Source: Paracoccus suum (GTDB taxonomy: Bacteria; Pseudomonadota; Alphaproteobacteria; Rhodobacterales; Rhodobacteraceae). Taken from it: a stretch of 32,000 nt of DNA. The notes below the pieces were generated by a model that saw nothing but the letters and a program-made list of their open reading frames with translations, was not told the origin of the DNA and searched no databases. Below, piece by piece: positions 1,362 to 32,000 of the stretch. The position numbers and the translations under genes were made by a program. Where the stretch lies: NCBI RefSeq assembly GCF_003324675.1, contig NZ_CP030918.1, positions 2,610,001-2,642,000 on the forward strand. Reading direction: 5' to 3'. Position 1 is the first letter of the stretch. Each line of letters starts with the position of its first letter.

Positions 1362-2966
1362 ATGACCAAACTTCTTCTGACCACCGCGCTGACCTGCGCT
1401 TTTGCATTCCCGGCACTCGCGGCAAAGCCGGCCGAGGGCGAAAAACTCGCCGACAAACAAGAGTATACGTTCTGGCTGCTGGATGCGATCAAATCGATGG
1501 ATCCGGCCAAGAACACCGACGTCGAAGGTAGCGACGTCCTGCGCCAGCTGCTCGAAGGGCTGATGATCGAGGACAACAAGGGCGCCATGATCCCCGGCGT
1601 CGCCGAAAGCTTCGACGAATCCCCCGACAAGCTGACCTACACATTCCATCTGCGCGATGCGAAATGGTCAAACGGCGATCCCGTCACCGCCGGCGACTTT
1701 GTCTACGGCTGGCGCCGCGTGGCAGATCCCAAGACGGCCAGCGAATACGCATGGTTCATGGAACTGATGAACATCGAAAACGCGACCAAGGTGGTCAAGG
1801 GCGAACTGCCGCCGGACCAGCTGGGCGTCAAGGCGATCGACGACAAGACCTTCGAGGTCAAGCTTTCGAACCCGACCCCCTATTTCATCAAGACGCTGGC
1901 CCATACCTCGACCTTCCCGGTGCCGCAAAAGGTGGTCGAGGCCGAGGGTGACAACTGGACCCAACCCGGCAAGTTCGTGGGCAACGGCGCCTACAAGCTG
2001 GACAGCCACGACCTGGGCGTATCGGTCGTCATGTCGAAGAACGACCAGTATTGGGATGCGGCCAACACCATCCTGACCAAGCTGACCGCCCTGACCGTCA
2101 ACGACAACAACGTCGCCCTGACACGCTATCAGGCAGGCGAGCTTGACCGCGTCCAGATCCCCGCCGGGCAATATCCGCGCCTGAAAGAGCAGTTCCCGAA
2201 CGAGGCGATCTCGATCCCCTACGGCTGCTCTTACACCTACCTCTTCAACCTCAGCGACAAGGGCCCCGAGGCCCTGAAGGACCTGCGCGTGCGCCAGGCG
2301 CTCAGCTATGCCGTGGACCGCGACACCATCGTGGACAAGGTGCTGCAAGGCGGCCAGAAGCCGGCCTACTGGTGGACCCACTGGGCGGTCGAGGGTTTTG
2401 AGGCGCCCGACATCGAGTTCAGCAAGTGGACCCAGGCCGAGCGCGTGGAAAAGGCCAAGGCCCTGCTGGCCGAGGCCGGCTATGGCCCGGGCGGCAAGCC
2501 GCTGAAGCTGACGATCCAGTACAACACCGACGACAACCACAAGAAGCTGGCGGTTGCCGTGCAGCAGTTCTGGAAAGCCATCGGCGTCGACGCGCAGCTG
2601 GCGAACTATGAGTGGAAGGTCCACACCGACCGCCTGCAGAACCAGGACTTCGAGACCGCCCGCTATGCGTGGTGCGACGATTACAACGAAGCCTCGACCT
2701 TCCTCGATTACTTCCGCACCGAGGGCTACAATAACGGCAAGTGGTCGAACGCCGAGTATGACAAGCTGCTCGCCGACAGCAAGACCTCGGCCAACCCGGC
2801 CGAGGACTACAAGAAAGCCGAGCAGATCCTGATCGGCGACATGGCCACCGTGCCGGTCTACCACTACGCCAAGGTGGACATGATCAAGCCGGACATGCGC
2901 GGCGTCCCGCTCGAAAACCTGATGAACGACTGGTACGCGAAGGACTTCTACCGCGTGGCGCAATAA
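1362..2966 (+). CDS. oppA: Oligopeptide ABC transporter substrate-binding protein (family 5 SBP)
   Basis: 534 aa with an N-terminal signal peptide (MTKLLLTTALTCAFAFPALA). Family-5 peptide-binding-protein-like sequence throughout. AAGGGGGG Shine-Dalgarno before the ATG. First gene of an oppBCDF-type operon. Confidence 0.9.
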   Translation: MTKLLLTTALTCAFAFPALAAKPAEGEKLADKQEYTFWLLDAIKSMDPAKNTDVEGSDVLRQLLEGLMIEDNKGAMIPGVAESFDESPDKLTYTFHLRDAKWSNGDPVTAGDFVYGWRRVADPKTASEYAWFMELMNIENATKVVKGELPPDQLGVKAIDDKTFEVKLSNPTPYFIKTLAHTSTFPVPQKVVEAEGDNWTQPGKFVGNGAYKLDSHDLGVSVVMSKNDQYWDAANTILTKLTALTVNDNNVALTRYQAGELDRVQIPAGQYPRLKEQFPNEAISIPYGCSYTYLFNLSDKGPEALKDLRVRQALSYAVDRDTIVDKVLQGGQKPAYWWTHWAVEGFEAPDIEFSKWTQAERVEKAKALLAEAGYGPGGKPLKLTIQYNTDDNHKKLAVAVQQFWKAIGVDAQLANYEWKVHTDRLQNQDFETARYAWCDDYNEASTFLDYFRTEGYNNGKWSNAEYDKLLADSKTSANPAEDYKKAEQILIGDMATVPVYHYAKVDMIKPDMRGVPLENLMNDWYAKDFYRVAQ

Positions 2967-2993
2967 CGCGCGGAAGGCCCTGATCAGGCCGGT

Positions 2994-3052
2994 GGGGCGC
3001 CCTCGCCCCATCGGCCGCAGGCGATCCTGACCGGCGCGCGGGCATGCCCGCG
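2994..3052 (+). promoter_or_regulatory. Two GC-rich hairpins/palindromes between oppA and oppB (possible mRNA-stabilising or attenuating structures)
   Basis: GGGGCG-CCCT-CGCCCC hairpin at 2994..3009 and the perfect 16-nt palindrome CGCGGGCATGCCCGCG at 3037..3052. No U-tract follows either. The position between the SBP gene and the permease genes is where differential-expression hairpins commonly sit. Confidence 0.3.
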
Positions 3053-3093
3053 GATCGGTCGCGGCCCCCGAATCCAGTCAATCGGACCCCTTC

Positions 3094-4017
3094 ATGTTCG
3101 GATATATCCTGCGACGGCTCGCAGTGGCGATTCCCACGCTGCTGCTGCTGATTGTCTTTTCGTTCATCCTGATGCAGCTCGCGCCCGGCGGTCCGTTCAC
3201 GGCCGAGCGGCAGTTGCCGCCCCAGGTCATCGCCAATCTCAACGCCAAATACGGCCTTGATGATCCGGCCTGGTTACAGCTCTGGAACTATCTCAAGGGA
3301 CTGCTGCTTCATTTCGATTTCGGGCCAAGCTTCGTCTATCCCGACATCTCGGTGAACCAGCTGATCGCCAAGGGCTTTCCGGTGACGCTGACCTACGGCG
3401 TCGTCAGCTTTCTCCTGGCTGTCATTATCGGCGTGGCGCTCGGGGTGACGGCGGCCATCTGGCACAACAGCTGGATCGACACGATGGCGGTCGGCGTGTC
3501 GATCGGCGCGCAGGTACTGCCGAACTTTGTCATGGCGCCGATCCTGGTGCTGATCTTCACGCTGTGGCTCGGCTGGCTGCCGGGGGGCGGGTGGTCGATG
3601 TCGCAGCCGCGGTTCTGGATCATGCCGGTGATCGCGCTCTCGACCAGCTACATGGCATCGATTGCGCGGATCACCCGCAGCTCGATGCTCGAAGTGCTGG
3701 GCAGCAACCACATCCGAACCGCCCGCGCCAAGGGCCTGCCCGAGCGTCTGGTCATCCTGCGGCATGCACTGAAACCGGCGCTGCTGCCGGTCATCAGTTA
3801 CCTCGGCCCGGTGTTTGTCACCATGATCACCGGCTCGGTCGTGGTCGACGTCTATTTCTCGACCGGCGGGATCGGGCGCTCGTTCGTCGATGCGGCGCTA
3901 AACCGGGACTATGCGATGATGATGGGCGTGACGATCCTGATCGGCGCGCTGACCATCTTTTTCAACCTCGTGGTCGATATCCTCTACGCGTGGATCGACC
4001 CCAAGATCCGGTACTGA
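3094..4017 (+). CDS. oppB: Oligopeptide ABC transporter permease OppB
   Basis: 307 aa. The N-terminus MFGYILRRLAVAIPTLLLLIVFSFILMQLAPGGPFTAERQLPPQVIANLNAKYGLDDP aligns closely with my recollection of E. coli OppB. Multi-pass membrane protein. Confidence 0.9.
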   Translation: MFGYILRRLAVAIPTLLLLIVFSFILMQLAPGGPFTAERQLPPQVIANLNAKYGLDDPAWLQLWNYLKGLLLHFDFGPSFVYPDISVNQLIAKGFPVTLTYGVVSFLLAVIIGVALGVTAAIWHNSWIDTMAVGVSIGAQVLPNFVMAPILVLIFTLWLGWLPGGGWSMSQPRFWIMPVIALSTSYMASIARITRSSMLEVLGSNHIRTARAKGLPERLVILRHALKPALLPVISYLGPVFVTMITGSVVVDVYFSTGGIGRSFVDAALNRDYAMMMGVTILIGALTIFFNLVVDILYAWIDPKIRY

Positions 4018-9277: not shown

Positions 9278-9302
9278 AAGGGCGGCCCGAGGGCCGCCCT
9301 TT
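9278..9302. terminator. Bidirectional intrinsic terminator between the convergent ABC exporter and ialB-like genes
   Basis: AA-GGGCGGCC-CGAG-GGCCGCCC-TTT. An 8-bp GC stem (9280..9287 / 9292..9299) with a tetraloop, A's upstream and T's downstream. Confidence 0.6.
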
Positions 9303-9322
9303 GACGCTTGTGCGTGGCGAAA

Positions 9323-10225
9323 TCAGGGCTTGGCGGGTTCGGCTGCCGGCGCCGGCGAGGTCGCCTTGACCGCATCCCAGGCCGCCGAAAAGCCCTTCAG
9401 CGACAGGGTCAGGTCGACCTTCGACTCGGCCGGTGCACCAAACGGCAGTAGCGACACGGTGACCTTGCTGCCCTTGCGCAGCGCGTCGATATCGCCCTGG
9501 CTCATGGCAACGCGGCTGAAGCAACCAATCTGCGTGCAGAAGCTGAAGGGATAGGCCTTTTGCTGGCCGGCATCGACACGGAAGCCGAGACCCGGCAGCA
9601 GGTCCGTCTCCAGCGGCGCGACCAGCGTCGCGCCGGCAGCAGCCTTGCCAGACAGCGGAACCAGCGAAACCTCGGCGACAGGGTTGTTCTCGGCATCGTG
9701 CATCAACTGGTAGAGCTCGCACGGGTCCTTGCCGTCGGCCGTCTTCTGGCAGCGCACCTGCCAATCCCCTTGGCTCTGGCCAAGGTAGAAGCCGCCGACC
9801 TGCACATCGGCCGCGGACTTGGCCGGGTTCGCTGGGGTCGCGCCGACGGGCGCCGCAACGCCGGGCGCGGGCGCGGCGCCCGGGGCAGCGGGACTTGCCG
9901 GCGTGGCAGCGGCACCATCGGCGGGCGCAGCCGGGGTGTCAGTCGCGGGGGTGTCGGCCGCCGGGGTGTCGGCCGCTGGCTTGTCCGTCGCAGCCGCGTC
10001 GGCCGCCGGGGTATCCGTCGCGGGCGTGTCGGTCGAAGGCGCGTCGGTCGAAGGCGCTGCGGTGTCAGCGCCGGCGGCCGGGGTCGTCGCGTCGGGCGCG
10101 GGCGTCGTTGCCGCGGCATCGGCGGCAGGCGTGTCCGGCGTCGCCGTCTGGGCCAAAAGCGCCGCGGGCGTCGCGCCAGCCATCAGCGCGGCCATCAGCG
10201 CAACTTTGGTCGTGAAAGCCATCAT
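9323..10225 (-). CDS. Invasion-associated locus B (IalB) family secreted protein with an Ala/Pro/Thr/Asp-rich repeat linker
   Basis: 300 aa. Signal peptide MMAFTTKVALMAALMAGATPAALLA, then about 110 aa of TPAAD/TPATD/APSTD repeats, then a C-terminal domain (GDWQVRCQK...CELYQL...FSFCTQIGCFSRV) that I recognise as IalB-like. AAAGGA Shine-Dalgarno. Confidence 0.75.
   Translation of the reverse strand: MMAFTTKVALMAALMAGATPAALLAQTATPDTPAADAAATTPAPDATTPAAGADTAAPSTDAPSTDTPATDTPAADAAATDKPAADTPAADTPATDTPAAPADGAAATPASPAAPGAAPAPGVAAPVGATPANPAKSAADVQVGGFYLGQSQGDWQVRCQKTADGKDPCELYQLMHDAENNPVAEVSLVPLSGKAAAGATLVAPLETDLLPGLGFRVDAGQQKAYPFSFCTQIGCFSRVAMSQGDIDALRKGSKVTVSLLPFGAPAESKVDLTLSLKGFSAAWDAVKATSPAPAAEPAKP
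9957..10057. repeat. In-frame 15-nt tandem repeats inside the ialB-like gene
   Basis: GGGGTGTCGGCCGCC/GGGGTGTCGGCCGCT at 9957..9986 (1 mismatch) and the perfect duplication GTCGGTCGAAGGCGC x2 at 10028..10057. These encode the 5-aa units (PAADT / APSTD) of the linker. Confidence 0.8.
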
Positions 10226-10384
10226 TTGTCCTTTCGTGGCAACGATGTTGGCCGCGATCTAGCACGCGCAGCGGGCGATGTCAGTGCCTCAAGCCGCACG
10301 ACCGACTCACCAAATCGTATAAGGATTTGCTGGAACCAACCGGACGGCGCCGGCGCGGCTTCGCCCCCGCCATGCAAAAGGCCC

Positions 10385-10416
10385 GCACTCCTCCGTGCGG
10401 GCCTTTCGTTCTCCCC
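10385..10416. terminator. Orphan terminator-like hairpin in a divergent intergenic region
   Basis: CAAAA-GGCCCGCAC-TCCTCC-GTGCGGGCC-TTTCGTT. A 9-bp stem (10390..10398 / 10405..10413), flanked by an A-run on one side and a T-run on the other, so it could terminate either strand. No annotated gene ends here. Confidence 0.45.
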
Positions 10417-10605
10417 CTGCCGGACTGGCCGGTCATCATTGGTGCGGACAGTAAGCGCCGCTCACACCCGCGTCAACAGTTTGGCCAGCGGGGCCTGCAC
10501 GGGGGATGCCCACCAATCGCGCGGACCGCCGTGCCTCCACAGTGGCGCCCCGGCGGCAAACGGTTATTCTGGTGCGGAAAATCAGCGCAGGCACAAGGGG
10601 CGGGC

Positions 10606-12183
10606 ATGGCAATCGTCGATCATGAGGCGGGAACGGTTTTTGTCGGCGGCGGCGGCCCCGATCACAAATCCCCGCAGCACCTGTTGCTGGGCTATGCCAA
10701 CCGCCACGGCCTGATCGCCGGCGCGACCGGCACCGGCAAGACGGTCAGCCTGCAGACCCTGGCTGAGTCCTTTTCGCTCGCAGGGGTCCCGGTGGTGCTT
10801 GCCGACGTCAAGGGCGACCTCGCCGGTCTCTCCCAGCCCGGCAGCCCCACCGCCCCGCAGCACGCGGCCTTTGAATCGCGCGCGGCCGAAATCGGCGTCA
10901 GCCTTGATTATCAGTCCTTTCCGGTCACGTTCTGGGACATTTTCGGCGATATCGGCCACCCGGTGCGCACCACACCGGCCGAGATGGGCCCTCTGCTGCT
11001 GTCGCGCCTGATGGGCCTGACCGAGGCGCAGGAGGGCGCGCTGAGCATCGCCTTTCGCGTCGCGGATGAGGAAGGGCTGGCGCTGCTCGACATGGCCGAC
11101 CTGCGCGCCATGCTGGTCTGGGTCGGAGAGAATCGTGCAGACCTGTCCCTGCGCTACGGCAATGTCGCGGCAGCCTCGGTCGGGGCGATCCAGCGCCGCC
11201 TGACGGTCCTTGAAAGCGAGGGCGGCGATCATCTGTTCGGCGAGCCTGCCCTGGCGCTGTCCGACCTGATCCGGGTCGACGCCTCGGGCAAGGGGGCGGT
11301 CAATATCCTCGCGGCCGAGCGCCTGATGCAGTCGCCGCGCCTTTACGCGACCTTCCTGTTGTGGCTGCTGTCCGAGCTGTTCGAGCAACTGCCCGAAGTG
11401 GGCGATCCGAAAAAGCCGGTGGTCGCCTTCTTCTTTGACGAGGCGCACCTGCTGTTTCAGGACGCGCCGCTTGCCCTGGTTGCCAAGATCGAGCAGGTCG
11501 CCCGACTGATCCGGTCCAAGGGTGTCTCGCTGTGGTTTGTCACGCAAAACCCGGCCGATCTGCCGGACACCGTGCTGGGCCAGATGGGCAACCGCGTCCA
11601 GCACGCGCTGCGCGCCTACACCGCCAAGGACCAGAAAGCGTTGCGCATGGCGGCGGAAAACTACCGGCCCAATCCGGATTTCGAGATTGCCGAGGCTATC
11701 CAGCAGGTCGGGGTTGGCGAGGCCGTGACCTCGCTGCTGGAGGCCAAGGGGGTGCCTGGCGTTTCGCAGCGCACGCTGATCCGTCCGCCTCTCAGCCGGC
11801 TGGGCCCGATCACCGAGGCCGAGCGGGCGGCGGTTATGGCGGCATCCCCGCTGGGGCTGAAATACAAAGCGCTGCTGGACCGCGAATCGGCGGCCGAACT
11901 GCTGTCGGCGCGGGCCACAGCGGCCGCTGATGCCGCCGCCGCAGCGGTGGCAGAGAAGGCACGAAAAGCCGAGACGGACGCACTGTTCGACATGCCCAAG
12001 ACCCGCGCCCGCAGCACGAACGCCAGCCTGACCATACCGCGGCAGGGCACGCCCACCGCATCTACGCGACGGGGCGATTCGATTGTCACCACATTTGGCA
12101 AGAGCGTCGCGCGCTCGGTCGGCACGCGCGCCGGATCCATGATCGTCAGAGGCGTTCTGGGCGGCCTGTTCCGCGGTCGCTGA
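10606..12183 (+). CDS. HerA-like / DUF853 (YjgR-type) P-loop NTPase
   Basis: ORF 10327..12183 trimmed to ATG 10606 (MAIVDHEAGTVFVGGGG...), preceded by AAGGGG. Walker A GATGTGKT, Walker B-like FFFDEAHLLF, and the family-typical VTQNPADLPDTVLGQMGNRVQHALRAYT. Confidence 0.85.
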   Translation: MAIVDHEAGTVFVGGGGPDHKSPQHLLLGYANRHGLIAGATGTGKTVSLQTLAESFSLAGVPVVLADVKGDLAGLSQPGSPTAPQHAAFESRAAEIGVSLDYQSFPVTFWDIFGDIGHPVRTTPAEMGPLLLSRLMGLTEAQEGALSIAFRVADEEGLALLDMADLRAMLVWVGENRADLSLRYGNVAAASVGAIQRRLTVLESEGGDHLFGEPALALSDLIRVDASGKGAVNILAAERLMQSPRLYATFLLWLLSELFEQLPEVGDPKKPVVAFFFDEAHLLFQDAPLALVAKIEQVARLIRSKGVSLWFVTQNPADLPDTVLGQMGNRVQHALRAYTAKDQKALRMAAENYRPNPDFEIAEAIQQVGVGEAVTSLLEAKGVPGVSQRTLIRPPLSRLGPITEAERAAVMAASPLGLKYKALLDRESAAELLSARATAAADAAAAAVAEKARKAETDALFDMPKTRARSTNASLTIPRQGTPTASTRRGDSIVTTFGKSVARSVGTRAGSMIVRGVLGGLFRGR

Positions 12184-28723: not shown

Positions 28724-29494
28724 ATGAAGCTGAACACCATCATCACGGGCGAGCCCGGCGCCCTGCCCCCGGTCATCCTCGCGCACGGCCTGCTGGGCAG
28801 CGCGCGCAACCTCGGCGGTCTCGCCCGGCGCCTTGCGGGCCGGCGCGTGATTCAGGTCGATATGCGCAACCACGGCGACAGTGGCTGGTCGGACGATCAC
28901 AGCTATGCCGCCCTCGCCGGCGACCTGGCCGAAGTGATCGCGGCCGAGGGCGGGATCGCCGACGTGGTCGGCCACTCGATGGGGGGCAAGGCGGCGATGG
29001 CCCTGGCGCTGCTGCACCCGCAGATGGTGCGCCGACTCGTCGTGCTGGACATCGCGCCCCTCGCCTACGCCCACAGCCAGACGCCGCTGATCGACGCGAT
29101 GGCTGCGACCGACCTGACCAGCATCACCCGCCGTAGCGAGGCCGATGCGCGCCTGGCCGAACGGGTCGAGGACGCAGGCACCCGCGCCTTTGTGCTGCAA
29201 TCGCTGGAACTGCGCCCGGGCGAGCCGGCGCGCTGGAAGATGAACCTCGCGGCGCTGCGGGCGGAAATGGCAGAACTGGTCGGCTGGCCGGAGGGGCTGG
29301 CGGAGGGCGCGTTCGACGGCCCGGTTCTAGCGATTGCCGGGGCCGAGAGCGATTACATCAGCCGCGAAGGCGAGGCCGCGCTGCGCCGCTATTTCCCGCA
29401 GATTGAGGTGCAACGTATCGCCGGCGCAGGGCACTGGGTTCATGCGGATGCTGCGCAGGCCGTGGGCGATGCGGTCGCGACGTTTATCGGCTAA
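28724..29494 (+). CDS. Alpha/beta hydrolase (YbfF-like esterase)
   Basis: 256 aa. HGLLGS oxyanion region, nucleophile elbow GHSMGG, C-terminal GAGHWVHAD. Confidence 0.85.
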   Translation: MKLNTIITGEPGALPPVILAHGLLGSARNLGGLARRLAGRRVIQVDMRNHGDSGWSDDHSYAALAGDLAEVIAAEGGIADVVGHSMGGKAAMALALLHPQMVRRLVVLDIAPLAYAHSQTPLIDAMAATDLTSITRRSEADARLAERVEDAGTRAFVLQSLELRPGEPARWKMNLAALRAEMAELVGWPEGLAEGAFDGPVLAIAGAESDYISREGEAALRRYFPQIEVQRIAGAGHWVHADAAQAVGDAVATFIG

Positions 29495-29534
29495 GCGCAG
29501 CCGGGATTTGACGGTTCTGCTCGCGCGGGCCACG

Positions 29535-29559
29535 GGGTCGCCTTCGGGCGGCCCTTTTT
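29535..29559 (+). terminator. Intrinsic terminator of the alpha/beta hydrolase gene
   Basis: GGGTCGCC-TTCG-GGCGGCCC (8-bp stem with one G-U pair, UUCG tetraloop) followed by TTTTT at 29555..29559. Confidence 0.7.
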
Positions 29560-29796
29560 CGTGCTCGTTTGGGGGTGATGAAAACACTTGCGGGCCGCCG
29601 AAACTTTGGCGGAGGCGTCCGTGTCTTGGGGGGTGCGTCCTTTCGGCGCATGACGACCTAGGCATTTTGCCAAGCCAGCGAGGGGGTCGGACGGCTAGGC
29701 GGAGGGCCAGCCCCCCGCCCCCGCCTGACCCGCGAGCCAGGTGAGAAAGGGTGTTTGGATCGCCGCAGCGTTGTTGCGGGTATTTGAGCAGGTCAG

Positions 29797-29829
29797 CGCC
29801 CCCCGGGAGTGATCCTGGGGGGCGTTTTT
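29797..29829 (+). terminator. Second plus-oriented intrinsic terminator at the left border of the AT-rich cassette
   Basis: CGCCCCCC(GGG)-AGTGAT-(CCT)GGGGGGCG stem (29797..29824) followed by TTTTT at 29825..29829. The T-run is on the plus strand only, yet no plus-strand gene ends here. Confidence 0.6.
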
Positions 29830-29848
29830 AGTATGGAGCAGCTGACGC

Positions 29849-30442
29849 CTAGCCGATCATTGTATACCAATCCCTGATAGTCAGTTTAAGTCGCACCGCT
29901 TCTTCAGGTACGATATAACCACTATGGGCTATCGGTCCCCGCGCAACATTAAGCCGTTTTATCACTTTTTCAAACCGAGGAATGCTGCAGTTTGAGAACA
30001 GTCCGCGGAAATCGTCCCAGTTGGCTTTGATGATCTCGCCCAGCTCCCCGAAGGTTGTATAATCAATCCTTCGAACCGAGCGAGCTTCCAGCCCCTCACT
30101 GTCCTCGTTTTCCTTGTTCTTCTTGACGTTATCACGAACGGCTTGAGGCACCTTATCACCCCACCAGTTAGGCCCATGAAGTTCCTCCATGGTATTCGCG
30201 ATTAACTCCCTGATATCATTCTCAAGAGAATAGAACATCCGGTAGAACTCGCCCATCCGATGGGCGTCAGATCTGATCCTCTTATCAATTTGATCCAAGT
30301 GCCGGTCAATGAGTGCGTCAGTATAAAGCTCGAGATCAGTCCGGCCGGTGGAAGCATTACTTGAAGGCAGAGCCAATCGTAAATCGCGGTACGTAAGCGC
30401 GCCTTTTAGGCAAAATAATTCTACCCTCTCTGAACTCATCAT
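29849..30442 (-). CDS. Swt1-like HEPN domain protein (predicted RNase)
   Basis: 197 aa. ...IRELIANTMEELHGPNWWGDKVPQAVRDNVKKNKENE...IDYTTFGELGEIIKANWDDF...FEKVIKRLNVARGPIAHSGYIVPEEAVRLKLTIRDW follows the Swt1-type HEPN pattern (WW...VP, NW..F, then R-x4-H near the C-terminus). R168/H173 are encoded at 29924..29941. Confidence 0.75.
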   Translation of the reverse strand: MMSSERVELFCLKGALTYRDLRLALPSSNASTGRTDLELYTDALIDRHLDQIDKRIRSDAHRMGEFYRMFYSLENDIRELIANTMEELHGPNWWGDKVPQAVRDNVKKNKENEDSEGLEARSVRRIDYTTFGELGEIIKANWDDFRGLFSNCSIPRFEKVIKRLNVARGPIAHSGYIVPEEAVRLKLTIRDWYTMIG

Positions 30443-31203
30443 TCTAAGAGATTTCTTTTGAGGCTTCGGAATATCGCGTCGAAGGTACGTTCATCCTGGC
30501 TCTCAGGAAGCACAATGTTGAATTGGTATGACAACCCGAACGTCGCCGCGGCGGGGCCTGGATCCGACTTCGGTGGAAGCGGCGGGACCTTTTCCACCTC
30601 GTCGTCCCTTCTGGCTTGATTCCCGTCCGAAATAAAGTTGGCCGGTATGTATGCTTTTATATTGTTAAAAGTGTTAATTATGTGTCGAAGTACCGGATCT
30701 TTTTTGGTCAAACCGGTGATTTCTACTACGATGTCTTGAAGCTGGACGTCGGTTGCCTTATGTGCGACTTCATTCTTCCTAAAAATCTCAGGAAATGCAT
30801 TTTTTAATCCACCTAGCGCTGCCGCAGCACGCCCGGTCTCGGTCTTAAATTTTGAGTAAAGGTCCGTTGGCGAGCCATCGCTGTTAAGAAAGCCCATCTT
30901 TTTGAGTATGGGCGGCACAGAGCGGGCGCCCCCTCCCGACAATCCGAATACTGTCTCCATGTAGACGTTGCTCAGGCGGTTGGGGCGTTCGGCGGCAATT
31001 ACCGCGTCGAGGACACCCTTAATCAGACCCGGAGAAGCGGTGTAAGGAAGATTCCCCTTAATCTCCCTAGCAGCCTGCTTCTCGGAAGCGACGGTCGTTT
31101 TCGCAGCCTCGCTCTCAGCTTCTTGGACCGCCCCTCCAGCGGTGCCCGGTTCGCCTTCTTGTTCCCCTTCCCCCTCTCCAGTACCCGTGACCGGCTCTTT
31201 CAT
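30439..31203 (-). CDS. DUF5343-like protein with acidic low-complexity N-terminus
   Basis: 254 aa. The core LPYTASPGLIKGVLDAVIAAERPNRLSNVYMETVFGLSGGGARSVPPILKKMGFLNSDGSPTDLYSKF and the C-terminal FNIVLPESQDERTFDAIFRSLKRNLL resemble what I remember of DUF5343 family proteins. The stop overlaps the HEPN gene start (ATGA at 30439..30442). Confidence 0.65.
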   Translation of the reverse strand: MKEPVTGTGEGEGEQEGEPGTAGGAVQEAESEAAKTTVASEKQAAREIKGNLPYTASPGLIKGVLDAVIAAERPNRLSNVYMETVFGLSGGGARSVPPILKKMGFLNSDGSPTDLYSKFKTETGRAAAALGGLKNAFPEIFRKNEVAHKATDVQLQDIVVEITGLTKKDPVLRHIINTFNNIKAYIPANFISDGNQARRDDEVEKVPPLPPKSDPGPAAATFGLSYQFNIVLPESQDERTFDAIFRSLKRNLLE

Positions 31204-31206
31204 CCC

Positions 31207-32000
31207 TCACCCATCCATCTTCAACGCCGAAATAAACGCCGACTGCGGAATCTCCACCTTCCCGAACTGGCGCATCTTCTTCTTACCCGCCTTCTGCTTT
31301 TCCAGGAGCTTTTTCTTTCTCGTGGCGTCCCCGCCGTAACACTTGGCCGTCACGTCCTTGCGCATCGCAGACAGGGTCTCGCGCGCGATTACCCGCCCGC
31401 CGATGGCCGCCTGGATCGGGATCTTGAACATGTGCCGGGGGATCAGGTCCTTCAGCTTTTCGACCATCGCCCGGCCGCGGGCGTCGGCGCGGTCGCGGTG
31501 GACCATGATCGACAGCGCGTCCACCGGCTCGTCATTCACCAGGATCGACATCTTCACGAGGTTGTCCTCGCGGTATTCGCTGATCTGGTAGTCGAACGAG
31601 GCATAACCCTTGGTCACCGATTTCAGCCGGTCGTAGAAATCGAACACGACCTCGGCCAGCGGCAGGTCATAGACCACCATCGCCCGGCTGCCGGCATAGG
31701 TCAGGTCCAGCTGGATGCCGCGGCGGTCCTGGCACAGCTTCAGCACGTCGCCCAGGTAGTCGTCGGGCACCATGATCGTGGCCTTGATCCGCGGCTCGTC
31801 GATATGGTCGATCTGCATCGGGTCGGGCATGTCGGCGGGGTTGTGCAACTCGCGCACCTCGCCATCCTTCATGTGCAGGCGGAACACCACCGACGGCGCG
31901 GTGGTGATCAGGTCGAGGTCATATTCCCGCTCGAGCCGGTCGCGGATCACCTCGAGGTGCAGCAGCCCCAGGAAGCCGCAGCGAAAGCCAAAGCCGAGGG
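31207..32000 (-). CDS. lepA: Translation elongation factor 4 (LepA), C-terminal part; gene continues beyond the right edge
   Basis: ...[28 protein letters not shown]..., the LepA-specific C-terminal domain, and the tail [36 protein letters not shown]. The 'M' at 31950 in the ORF track is an internal GTG (Val). The frame stays open to position 32000. Confidence 0.95.

Follow-up and report, generated by a model that had tools for sequence, protein, structure and literature searches.

A two-gene DUF5343–HEPN cassette inserted after lepA in Paracoccus suum is a member of the candidate phage defence family PDC-M34

Introduction

HEPN RNases form the killing component of many immune and toxin–antitoxin systems, and each known class has a control mechanism of its own. 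In the RnlA–RnlB and LsoA–LsoB systems of Escherichia coli, which act against phage T4, a HEPN-family RNase is held by a binding protein partner and freed upon phage infection. HEPN–MNT modules (type VII toxin–antitoxin systems, e.g. SO_3166/SO_3165 of Shewanella) couple a small HEPN RNase bearing an R-x4-6-H motif tightly to a minimal nucleotidyltransferase (MNT) that is encoded first (PMC3710099). Here we describe a cassette of two open reading frames (ORFs), designated A and B, that follows lepA in a 32 kb stretch of the Paracoccus suum genome (NZ_CP030918.1); this whole stretch of analysed DNA is referred to as the window. Gene A encodes a DUF5343 protein and gene B a Swt1-type HEPN protein, a pairing that corresponds to the candidate defence family PDC-M34.

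PDC-M34 belongs to a set of 145 untested phage defence candidates (PDCs) that were predicted through guilt-by-embedding in BREX, DISARM and type I restriction–modification (RM) systems, and is catalogued as cassette CAS_00130 (FAM_01148>>FAM_01657) with the number 97, probably a count of instances (Payne et al., bioRxiv 10.1101/2024.01.29.577857). Two later papers in which PDCs were tested covered other candidates, M34 not being among them. Active bacterial HEPN proteins of the Swt1/Abi2 clade (Anantharaman et al. 2013), to which AbiD/AbiF (Abi_2) and the HEPN domain of gene B belong, have been predicted to be defence RNases, and the survey in which they are described does not describe a DUF5343 partner (PMC3710099).

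The window cassette has the same A and B profiles, order and adjacency as PDC-M34 and displays no structural difference from it; some catalogued copies occur inside BREX, DISARM or type I RM systems, whereas the window copy stands alone after lepA. It resembles HEPN–MNT modules in having two genes, a small HEPN RNase with the corresponding motif, a partner encoded first and tight coupling between the two, but the partner is DUF5343 instead of an MNT, and the HEPN domain belongs to the Swt1/Abi2 clade and follows an N-terminal helical extension of ~60 residues. As no nucleotidyltransferase family was matched at E-values up to 10, neutralisation of a toxin via AMPylation is not expected in this pair. 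Unlike AbiD/AbiF, the window HEPN protein is paired with a second protein, and scanning Rfam for a non-coding RNA of the kind associated with AbiF (RF03085) returned chance-level matches only. The likeness to RnlA–RnlB is one of concept. No sequence relationship to the window pair was detected, RnlA precedes RnlB in gene order, and DUF5343 is both larger than RnlB and far more conserved.

Results

The cassette matches the PDC-M34 profiles

Searching the two proteins against PADLOC-DB v2 (2023) identified PDC-M34 models for both. Protein A matched PDLC04589 (PDC-M34A; E 7.7e-34, profile positions 6–207 of 208) and, more weakly, PDLC04588 (E 1.1e-12), whilst protein B matched PDLC04592 (PDC-M34B; E 1.9e-38, residues 2–197 on profile positions 1–191 of 192) in addition to PDLC04591 and PDLC04590. 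At E-values up to 1, only PDC-M34 models were matched in this database, and no validated system. The architecture also corresponds to that of PDC-M34, with A followed by B, adjacent and co-directional on the minus strand and overlapping by 4 nt. By profile match and gene layout, the window cassette is thus a member of the PDC-M34 candidate family. The original prediction for this locus, which was made without database searches, had held that no named system contains this gene pair; the PADLOC models overturn that statement, an outcome that the prediction itself had listed as refuting, with the proviso that the system is named as a computational candidate only. Searches of the literature on Swt1-like HEPN proteins yielded nothing past the 2013 HEPN survey, and validated systems published after 2023 were checked by literature search alone, with none found.

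Protein A, which is 100 % identical to the NCBI Paracoccus suum DUF5343 protein, matched DUF5343 (PF17278) over residues 53–185 with an E-value of 2.6e-28, above the gathering threshold. A Pfam scan of A and 23 homologues at E-values up to 10 returned DUF5343 only, with no nucleotidyltransferase or other family, and NCBIfam gave no match. The upstream protein is therefore neither an MNT nor another Pfam-defined antitoxin. Protein B matched HEPN_Swt1 (PF18731) over residues 68–197 (E 8.7e-14; 52.2 bits versus a cut-off of 27.5) across the full 115-position profile, the remaining ~60 residues forming the helical extension ahead of the HEPN domain. All 24 aligned B homologues matched HEPN_Swt1, and their weak second matches were to other HEPN families, namely SAV2148 and Abi_2. 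Window B itself did not match the Pfam Abi_2 model, which was matched by two of the 24 homologues at E ~0.1, far below threshold. The catalytic R-x4-H motif of HEPN proteins is present, with R168 and H173 invariant across the 24 homologues, as are N165, E74, R78, R121, S122 and D127. Among the B genes neighbouring A in the wider collection described below, N-x2-R-x4-H was found in 76 of 77, the exception stopping at a contig end. On the identity of the two proteins the original prediction has held up well: it had called the upstream protein DUF5343-like, seen in it neither an MNT nor any antitoxin it recognised, and read the downstream protein as a Swt1-type HEPN with an intact R-x4-H motif.

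The AlphaFold model of B is all-alpha, with a predicted local distance difference test (pLDDT) score of 86. Public annotation of P. suum gives B as a protein of 135 aa that starts at the internal Met63 (DRW48_12900, P0125). Homologues of ~197 aa cover 96–99 % of our ORF and the PADLOC model spans residues 2–197, which argues that the 197 aa reading is the right one.

Protein A divides into four segments (Table 1). The N-terminal extension is present in aligned alphaproteobacterial homologues and missing from most other members of the family, most representatives of which begin at profile position ~38; lengths in the DUF5343 family are almost uniformly 205–245 aa. The helical core carries the invariant basic residues R94, K101 and K102, and may, on weak indications from the model, hold a winged helix (H79–85, H91–103 and a short hairpin). 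A Foldseek search of the AlphaFold model of A against the PDB returned nothing significant (best E 0.7), so the winged-helix idea rests only on the kind of weak matches obtained, most of which fell on winged-helix regulators, on ROQ, an RNA-binding domain, and on the winged-helix domains found in DEAH helicases. A Foldseek search of the same model against the viral BFVD likewise returned nothing significant, and PDB chain sequences searched with the A profile and with B gave nothing meaningful. Beyond the core and a variable linker, the C-terminal tail is the most conserved segment of A, with column conservation of 0.72–0.84 across 73 sequences from many phyla. We infer that the tail would be the element that binds the HEPN partner.

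A and B recur as a pair across phyla

A scan of one genome per species identified at least 514 loci with a relative of A, of which 80 were kept for analysis (L001–L080). These loci belonged to Alpha-, Beta- and Gammaproteobacteria, Actinomycetota, Acidobacteriota, Verrucomicrobiota, Planctomycetota, Patescibacteria, Spirochaetota, Bacteroidota, Nitrospirota and others. In 77 of the 80, the gene immediately downstream of A, in the same orientation, was a homologue of B. One of the three exceptions is explained by a contig end, and in the other two A is intact and B has been lost: in L006 (10684–10911) the first ~45 codons of B remain, whilst in L074 (5897–7300) an insertion sequence (IS) element with a transposase-like ORF occupies B's place. 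Where A/B junctions could be compared, 50 of 73 overlapped, 30 of them as ATGA, and the remainder lay 0–17 nt apart. Recurrence of the DUF5343 and HEPN genes as an overlapping pair in unrelated genomes, a check put forward with the original prediction, is thus supported. Pairwise identities of A and B were also correlated (r = 0.86, Mantel p = 0.001), and by this measure the two proteins co-evolve.

The family is small: out of 1.84 billion representatives searched exhaustively with HMMER, 1,720 clusters matched at E <= 1e-3. PHROGs contained no match. The 149 immediate neighbours of the pair fell into 140 Pfam families, none of which occurred more than twice, indicating that there is no third conserved gene. 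Neither a conserved promoter or operator nor conserved upstream non-coding DNA was found before A across 73 loci. Among the top 25 of the 172 models matched by these neighbours, taken as family counts, were defence models, including MADS mad3/mad8, Menshen NsnB, PARIS AriA, BrxHI, DpdJ, Shango SngC and PD-T4-10, and these involve only a few of the 149 neighbours. Nine large flanking proteins from five loci were additionally compared with known defence genes and none matched, so association with defence islands is weak.

The cassette is compositionally foreign and starts 3 nt after lepA

The region after lepA contains exactly two ORFs on the minus strand, A and B, as had been predicted, and their stop and start codons overlap as ATGA (Table 1), which implies translational coupling of the pair. 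The cassette has a G+C content of 0.511, compared with 0.666 (sd 0.025) in stretches of the same size elsewhere in the 32 kb (z = -6.1). G+C content at third codon positions (GC3) was 0.54–0.56 in the cassette versus 0.86–0.90 in lepA, glyA and the hydrolase gene. The sharp compositional drop in the original prediction is therefore real, but the figures given for it were inexact: counts of G+C per 60 nt line in 29881..30900 run from 21 to 34 with a single line at 43, not from 21 to 30, and the value of 43 quoted for lepA is the maximum of a distribution with a mean of 37.5. Lower G+C relative to flanking DNA is a feature of the family: 72 of 75 loci show it, with a median difference of -11 points. 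Within gene A, the 5' third is richer in total G+C, a consequence of its Gly/Ala/Glu/Pro-rich amino acid composition. Its GC3 of 0.58 is the same as in the rest of the cassette, indicating that this part is foreign too, and a host origin for it was rejected on that ground.

Only 3 nt separate the lepA stop from the start of A, which leaves no room for a separate A promoter, and this gap makes it most likely that A and B share a transcript with lepA in P. suum. On the other side, a convergent alpha/beta-hydrolase gene ends at 29494. A GC-rich hairpin shortly after B is the likely transcript end of lepA-A-B; its T-run lies on the plus-strand side only, and it may serve as a tail-less terminator of the minus-strand transcript.

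Two further observations concern the spacer between B and the hydrolase gene. The spacer (355 nt) holds two terminator-like hairpins, at 29534–29555 and 29795–29826, both with T-runs on the plus strand; no annotated plus-strand gene reads into the second, and no Rfam match was found in the spacer. A 12 nt inverted match (ATCGGCTAAGCG / CGCCTAGCCGAT) was also present at 29486–29497 and 29846–29857, across the hydrolase and HEPN stop codons respectively. The hydrolase and HEPN proteins of the window both terminate in Ile-Gly, and most HEPN homologues terminate in L/M-E. As a signature of integration the inverted match was set aside, being probably due to chance.

Table 1. Features of the cassette and its surroundings in the window (positions are those of the 32 kb stretch)
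Feature	Position	Strand	Description
Gene A	30439..31203	-	DUF5343 protein, 254 aa; PADLOC PDC-M34A; ATG 3 nt past the lepA stop
Gene B	29849..30442	-	Swt1-type HEPN, 197 aa; PADLOC PDC-M34B; predicted RNase effector
A/B overlap, ATGA	30439..30442	-	A stop (TGA) and B start (ATG) overlap, 4 nt
lepA stop and spacer	31204..31209	-	lepA stop (31207–31209) plus the 3 nt up to the A start; upstream boundary of the insert
A residues 1–45	31069..31203	-	N-terminal extension; variable, low-complexity, predicted disordered; conservation <0.1, pLDDT 43–65
A residues 46–185	30649..31068	-	Helical DUF5343 core; conserved; pLDDT 82–93
A residues 186–222	30538..30648	-	Linker; variable, disordered; conservation ~0.2, pLDDT 46–59
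A residues 223–254	30442..30537	-	C-terminal tail LSYQxNIVLPE...AIFxSLxxNLL; pLDDT 81–85, helix 238–252
B catalytic motif	29924..29941	-	Codons of R168-G-P-I-A-H173 (HEPN R-x4-H); read from the sequence
Hairpin	29795..29826	.	GC-rich, starts 22 nt past the B stop; minus-strand RNA fold -29.4 kcal/mol, z = -2.9
Non-coding spacer	29495..29848	.	From the B stop to the convergent hydrolase gene; no DNA similarity to relatives

The position after lepA is a variable insertion point

The gene order NAD kinase, glyA, small ORF, hydrolase, lepA is conserved in Paracoccus. DNA similarity between the window and its relatives ends exactly at the lepA stop (31204–31207) on one side and, on the other, where the hydrolase gene finishes (~29480–29500). 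The downstream boundary of the insert must lie somewhere within the spacer, which lacks similarity to relatives. Alignment of the region downstream of lepA, which had been recommended as a check, revealed sites that are empty or otherwise filled in other Paracoccus (L090, L093, L094). In P. sediminicola the lepA–hydrolase interval is ~720 bp with one small ORF, making it a nearly empty site, in P. litorisediminis it contains entericidin-like and other small ORFs with a classic terminator after lepA, and in Paracoccus sp. S-4012 it contains cytochrome b561, a DksA/TraR-like gene and other ORFs. The S-4012 interval (L090 8643–9342, minus strand) also includes two overlapping small ORFs of 104 and 130 aa without a Pfam match, ~210 nt downstream of lepA, which may represent another two-gene module at this hotspot.

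The same cassette was found after lepA in Pseudorhodobacter (L001), Rubellimicrobium (L003) and, on short metagenome contigs, in uncultured relatives. One such locus (L089) carries an intact copy whose A and B proteins are 61 % and 65 % identical to those of the window. Two others, L087 (2403–3745) and L088 (1651–2990), carry a divergent allele, with identities of 31–39 % for A and 45 % for B, in which the lepA stop and the A start share the sequence TGATG. Both cassette genes are frameshifted in L087 and L088, two independently assembled metagenomes thus showing the same pseudogenised structure. For the L089 and the L087/L088 alleles alike, the hydrolase next to the cassette shows 76 % identity, indicating that two very divergent alleles occupy one orthologous lepA site. 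In Paracoccus and related Rhodobacterales, variable insertions recur at the position right after the lepA stop, where the cargo differs between species or is almost absent.

The window contains neither a tRNA nor an integrase gene, the insert holds only A and B, and no convincing flanking direct repeats or att-like repeats were found around it. Arrival through recombination between flanking homologous sequences among Rhodobacterales would be speculation at this point.

The DUF5343 core also occurs fused to a kinase

A second arrangement of the DUF5343 core was identified on a contig from a metagenome-assembled genome (MAG; L095) and on a Logan metagenome contig (L096). In both, protein P0469 (6001–7374), encoded 2.6 kb downstream of a canonical pair (2220–3391), comprises a DUF5343 core (residues 1–143) and, where the tail would otherwise be, a Ser/Thr kinase domain (Pkinase, E 8.4e-33). 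Just beyond the P0469 gene, L095 carries an IS110 transposase and a TIR-domain protein (9282–10688). The best PADLOC match of the kinase was PD-T4-6 (E 7.6e-43). This likeness belongs to the kinase half of P0469 and not to the window, and suggests that the DUF5343 core can be attached to another class of effector. Taken with the canonical pair, the fusion suggests that the core of A may be coupled to different effectors, and that the tail may be the adaptor by which the HEPN partner is held. Both this tethered, conserved tail and the kinase fusion are consistent with a role for A as sensor or neutraliser of B, the working hypothesis of the original prediction.

Discussion

The best explanation for these data is that the two-gene module is a horizontally acquired, self-contained PDC-M34 unit situated in a variable spot after lepA, and that it is probably co-transcribed with lepA. 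A conflict-system reading of the module is reasonable. More specifically, we favour, with a probability of roughly 0.55, a reading in which the cassette is an abortive-infection or toxin–antitoxin-like module with B as a putative RNase effector and A as the sensor that would also hold B by means of its tail. B, like other HEPN RNases, would act as a dimer that cuts RNA at a composite R-x4-H active site, and this cutting would stop growth of the infected cell. A would be a non-enzymatic partner whose globular DUF5343 core serves as a sensing or regulatory domain. Its strand–helix tail, carried on a disordered linker, would bind B and keep it inactive or positioned until a trigger frees it, and the A-before-B order with overlapping codons would hold both proteins at a fixed ratio. 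RNase activity, toxicity, tail binding and any anti-phage role are only inferred here.

Several observations weigh against this reading of the cassette as a defence or toxin–antitoxin-like module. Searches by tblastn and blastn of 72,556 plasmids, 50,697 phage records and 5,426 E. coli genomes yielded no copies, whereas a defence gene of high mobility would usually be expected there. The window copy and several others stand alone among housekeeping genes (e.g. in Caulobacter), outside defence islands. Full-text literature searches for DUF5343, PF17278 and PDC-M34 returned no paper, nor any experiment showing that a family member is toxic, has RNase activity or defends against phage. A Foldseek search of the B model against the PDB gave no significant match and no HEPN structure, so the HEPN call rests on the sequence profile and motif. 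The kinase fusion was found in only two places, L095 and L096, and a match to PD-T4-6 is present in every analysed S. thermophilus genome (PMC11514479); its models appear to capture conserved cellular kinases as well, which makes the defence link through this match weak. Finally, A contains a stop codon or 1 nt frameshift beside an intact B with its R-x4-H motif in four loci (L001 ~10339, L021 ~10600, L022 ~10460, L026 ~10363), which, if real, would mean that A is not an essential antitoxin. All four are single-base events in draft genomes or MAGs, one of them in a G7 run, and could be sequencing errors. Programmed frameshifting or a split gene was considered for these disrupted copies and is unsupported, the single-base indels being at different positions and one being in the G7 run.

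A broader version of the favoured reading may be entertained tentatively. DUF5343 could be an unrecognised immune sensor domain that drives different effectors, a HEPN protein non-covalently via the tail and, in a rarer variant, a kinase by fusion, with PDC-M34 acting in genuine abortive infection; on present data we regard this as doubtful.

Of the alternatives, a plain type II addiction module fares best, and we nonetheless consider it unlikely. A would then be a labile winged-helix DNA-binding antitoxin that neutralises the HEPN toxin and represses the operon, loss of the module would kill the cell, and there would be no dedicated anti-phage role. The window pair has the layout expected of type II toxin–antitoxin systems, namely a small, adjacent, co-directional pair with the partner upstream and translational coupling, and the antitoxin-first order with overlapping codons fits well. 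The disordered regions of A are typical of protease-labile antitoxins, its weak fold matches are mostly winged-helix repressors, many copies reside alone among housekeeping genes, and L006 and L074 are remnants in which the toxin has been lost and the partner kept. An autorepressed operon, however, sits poorly with the finding that no conserved upstream DNA or operator travels with the cassette, and in the window the 3 nt after lepA afford no intergenic space for an autoregulated promoter. The core of A is also unusually conserved, with putative recognition-helix residues invariant across phyla, unlike what locus-specific operators would lead one to expect, and the winged-helix assignment itself is without statistical support. 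Moreover, the family is absent from the 72,556 plasmids, where addiction modules usually thrive, and first came to light inside BREX, DISARM or type I RM systems.

Less probable again is that A acts as a positive targeting or activating subunit, whose core would bind nucleic acid or a phage component and bring the HEPN RNase to its substrate, B alone being inactive and non-toxic. This is what the four loci with a disrupted A beside an intact B, motif kept, would suggest, but as noted these disruptions may be errors. The high conservation of the A core with its invariant R94, K101 and K102 and its weak fold likeness to RNA- and DNA-binding winged helices (the ROQ and DEAH winged-helix domains) point the same way, although nucleic acid binding by A is putative. 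Fusion of the same core in cis to a kinase effector is likewise as expected of a sensor or adaptor domain. Against this, the remnants that have lost B and kept A are easier to reconcile with an effector that is costly than with one that does no harm.

A housekeeping RNA-processing pair tied to lepA and translation is very improbable: the start of A 3 nt after the lepA stop, the same pair after lepA in Pseudorhodobacter, Rubellimicrobium and uncultured relatives, and the HEPN domains of eukaryotic Swt1 and Las1 in core RNA metabolism (PMC3710099) would suit it, but only three of the 80 scan loci adjoin lepA (L001, L003 and the window's own genome) with unrelated neighbours elsewhere, other Paracoccus (L090, L093, L094) have an empty or differently filled site, the composition is strongly foreign, the same-site copy is pseudogenised in L087 and L088, and the family is rare at 1,720 clusters among 1.84 billion representatives.

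These results correct the record for this locus in that the system is already catalogued, and a PADLOC run would flag it; follow-up should cite and build upon PDC-M34. If the module were inert or purely selfish, it would be merely one more low-GC insert of the toxin–antitoxin-like kind. The pair is a compact module, ~1.35 kb in all and present across phyla, and none of the searchable papers mentions its control partner. It offers several handles for further study: R168/H173, the tail at residues 223–254, the corrected 197 aa start of B, the kinase-fusion variant, the decayed copies and the lepA hotspot. Should DUF5343 indeed be an immune sensor domain that drives different effectors, PDC-M34 would represent a new way of controlling a HEPN nuclease, apart from AMPylation by MNT proteins, RnlB-type inhibitors, and control by CRISPR or cyclic oligoadenylate.

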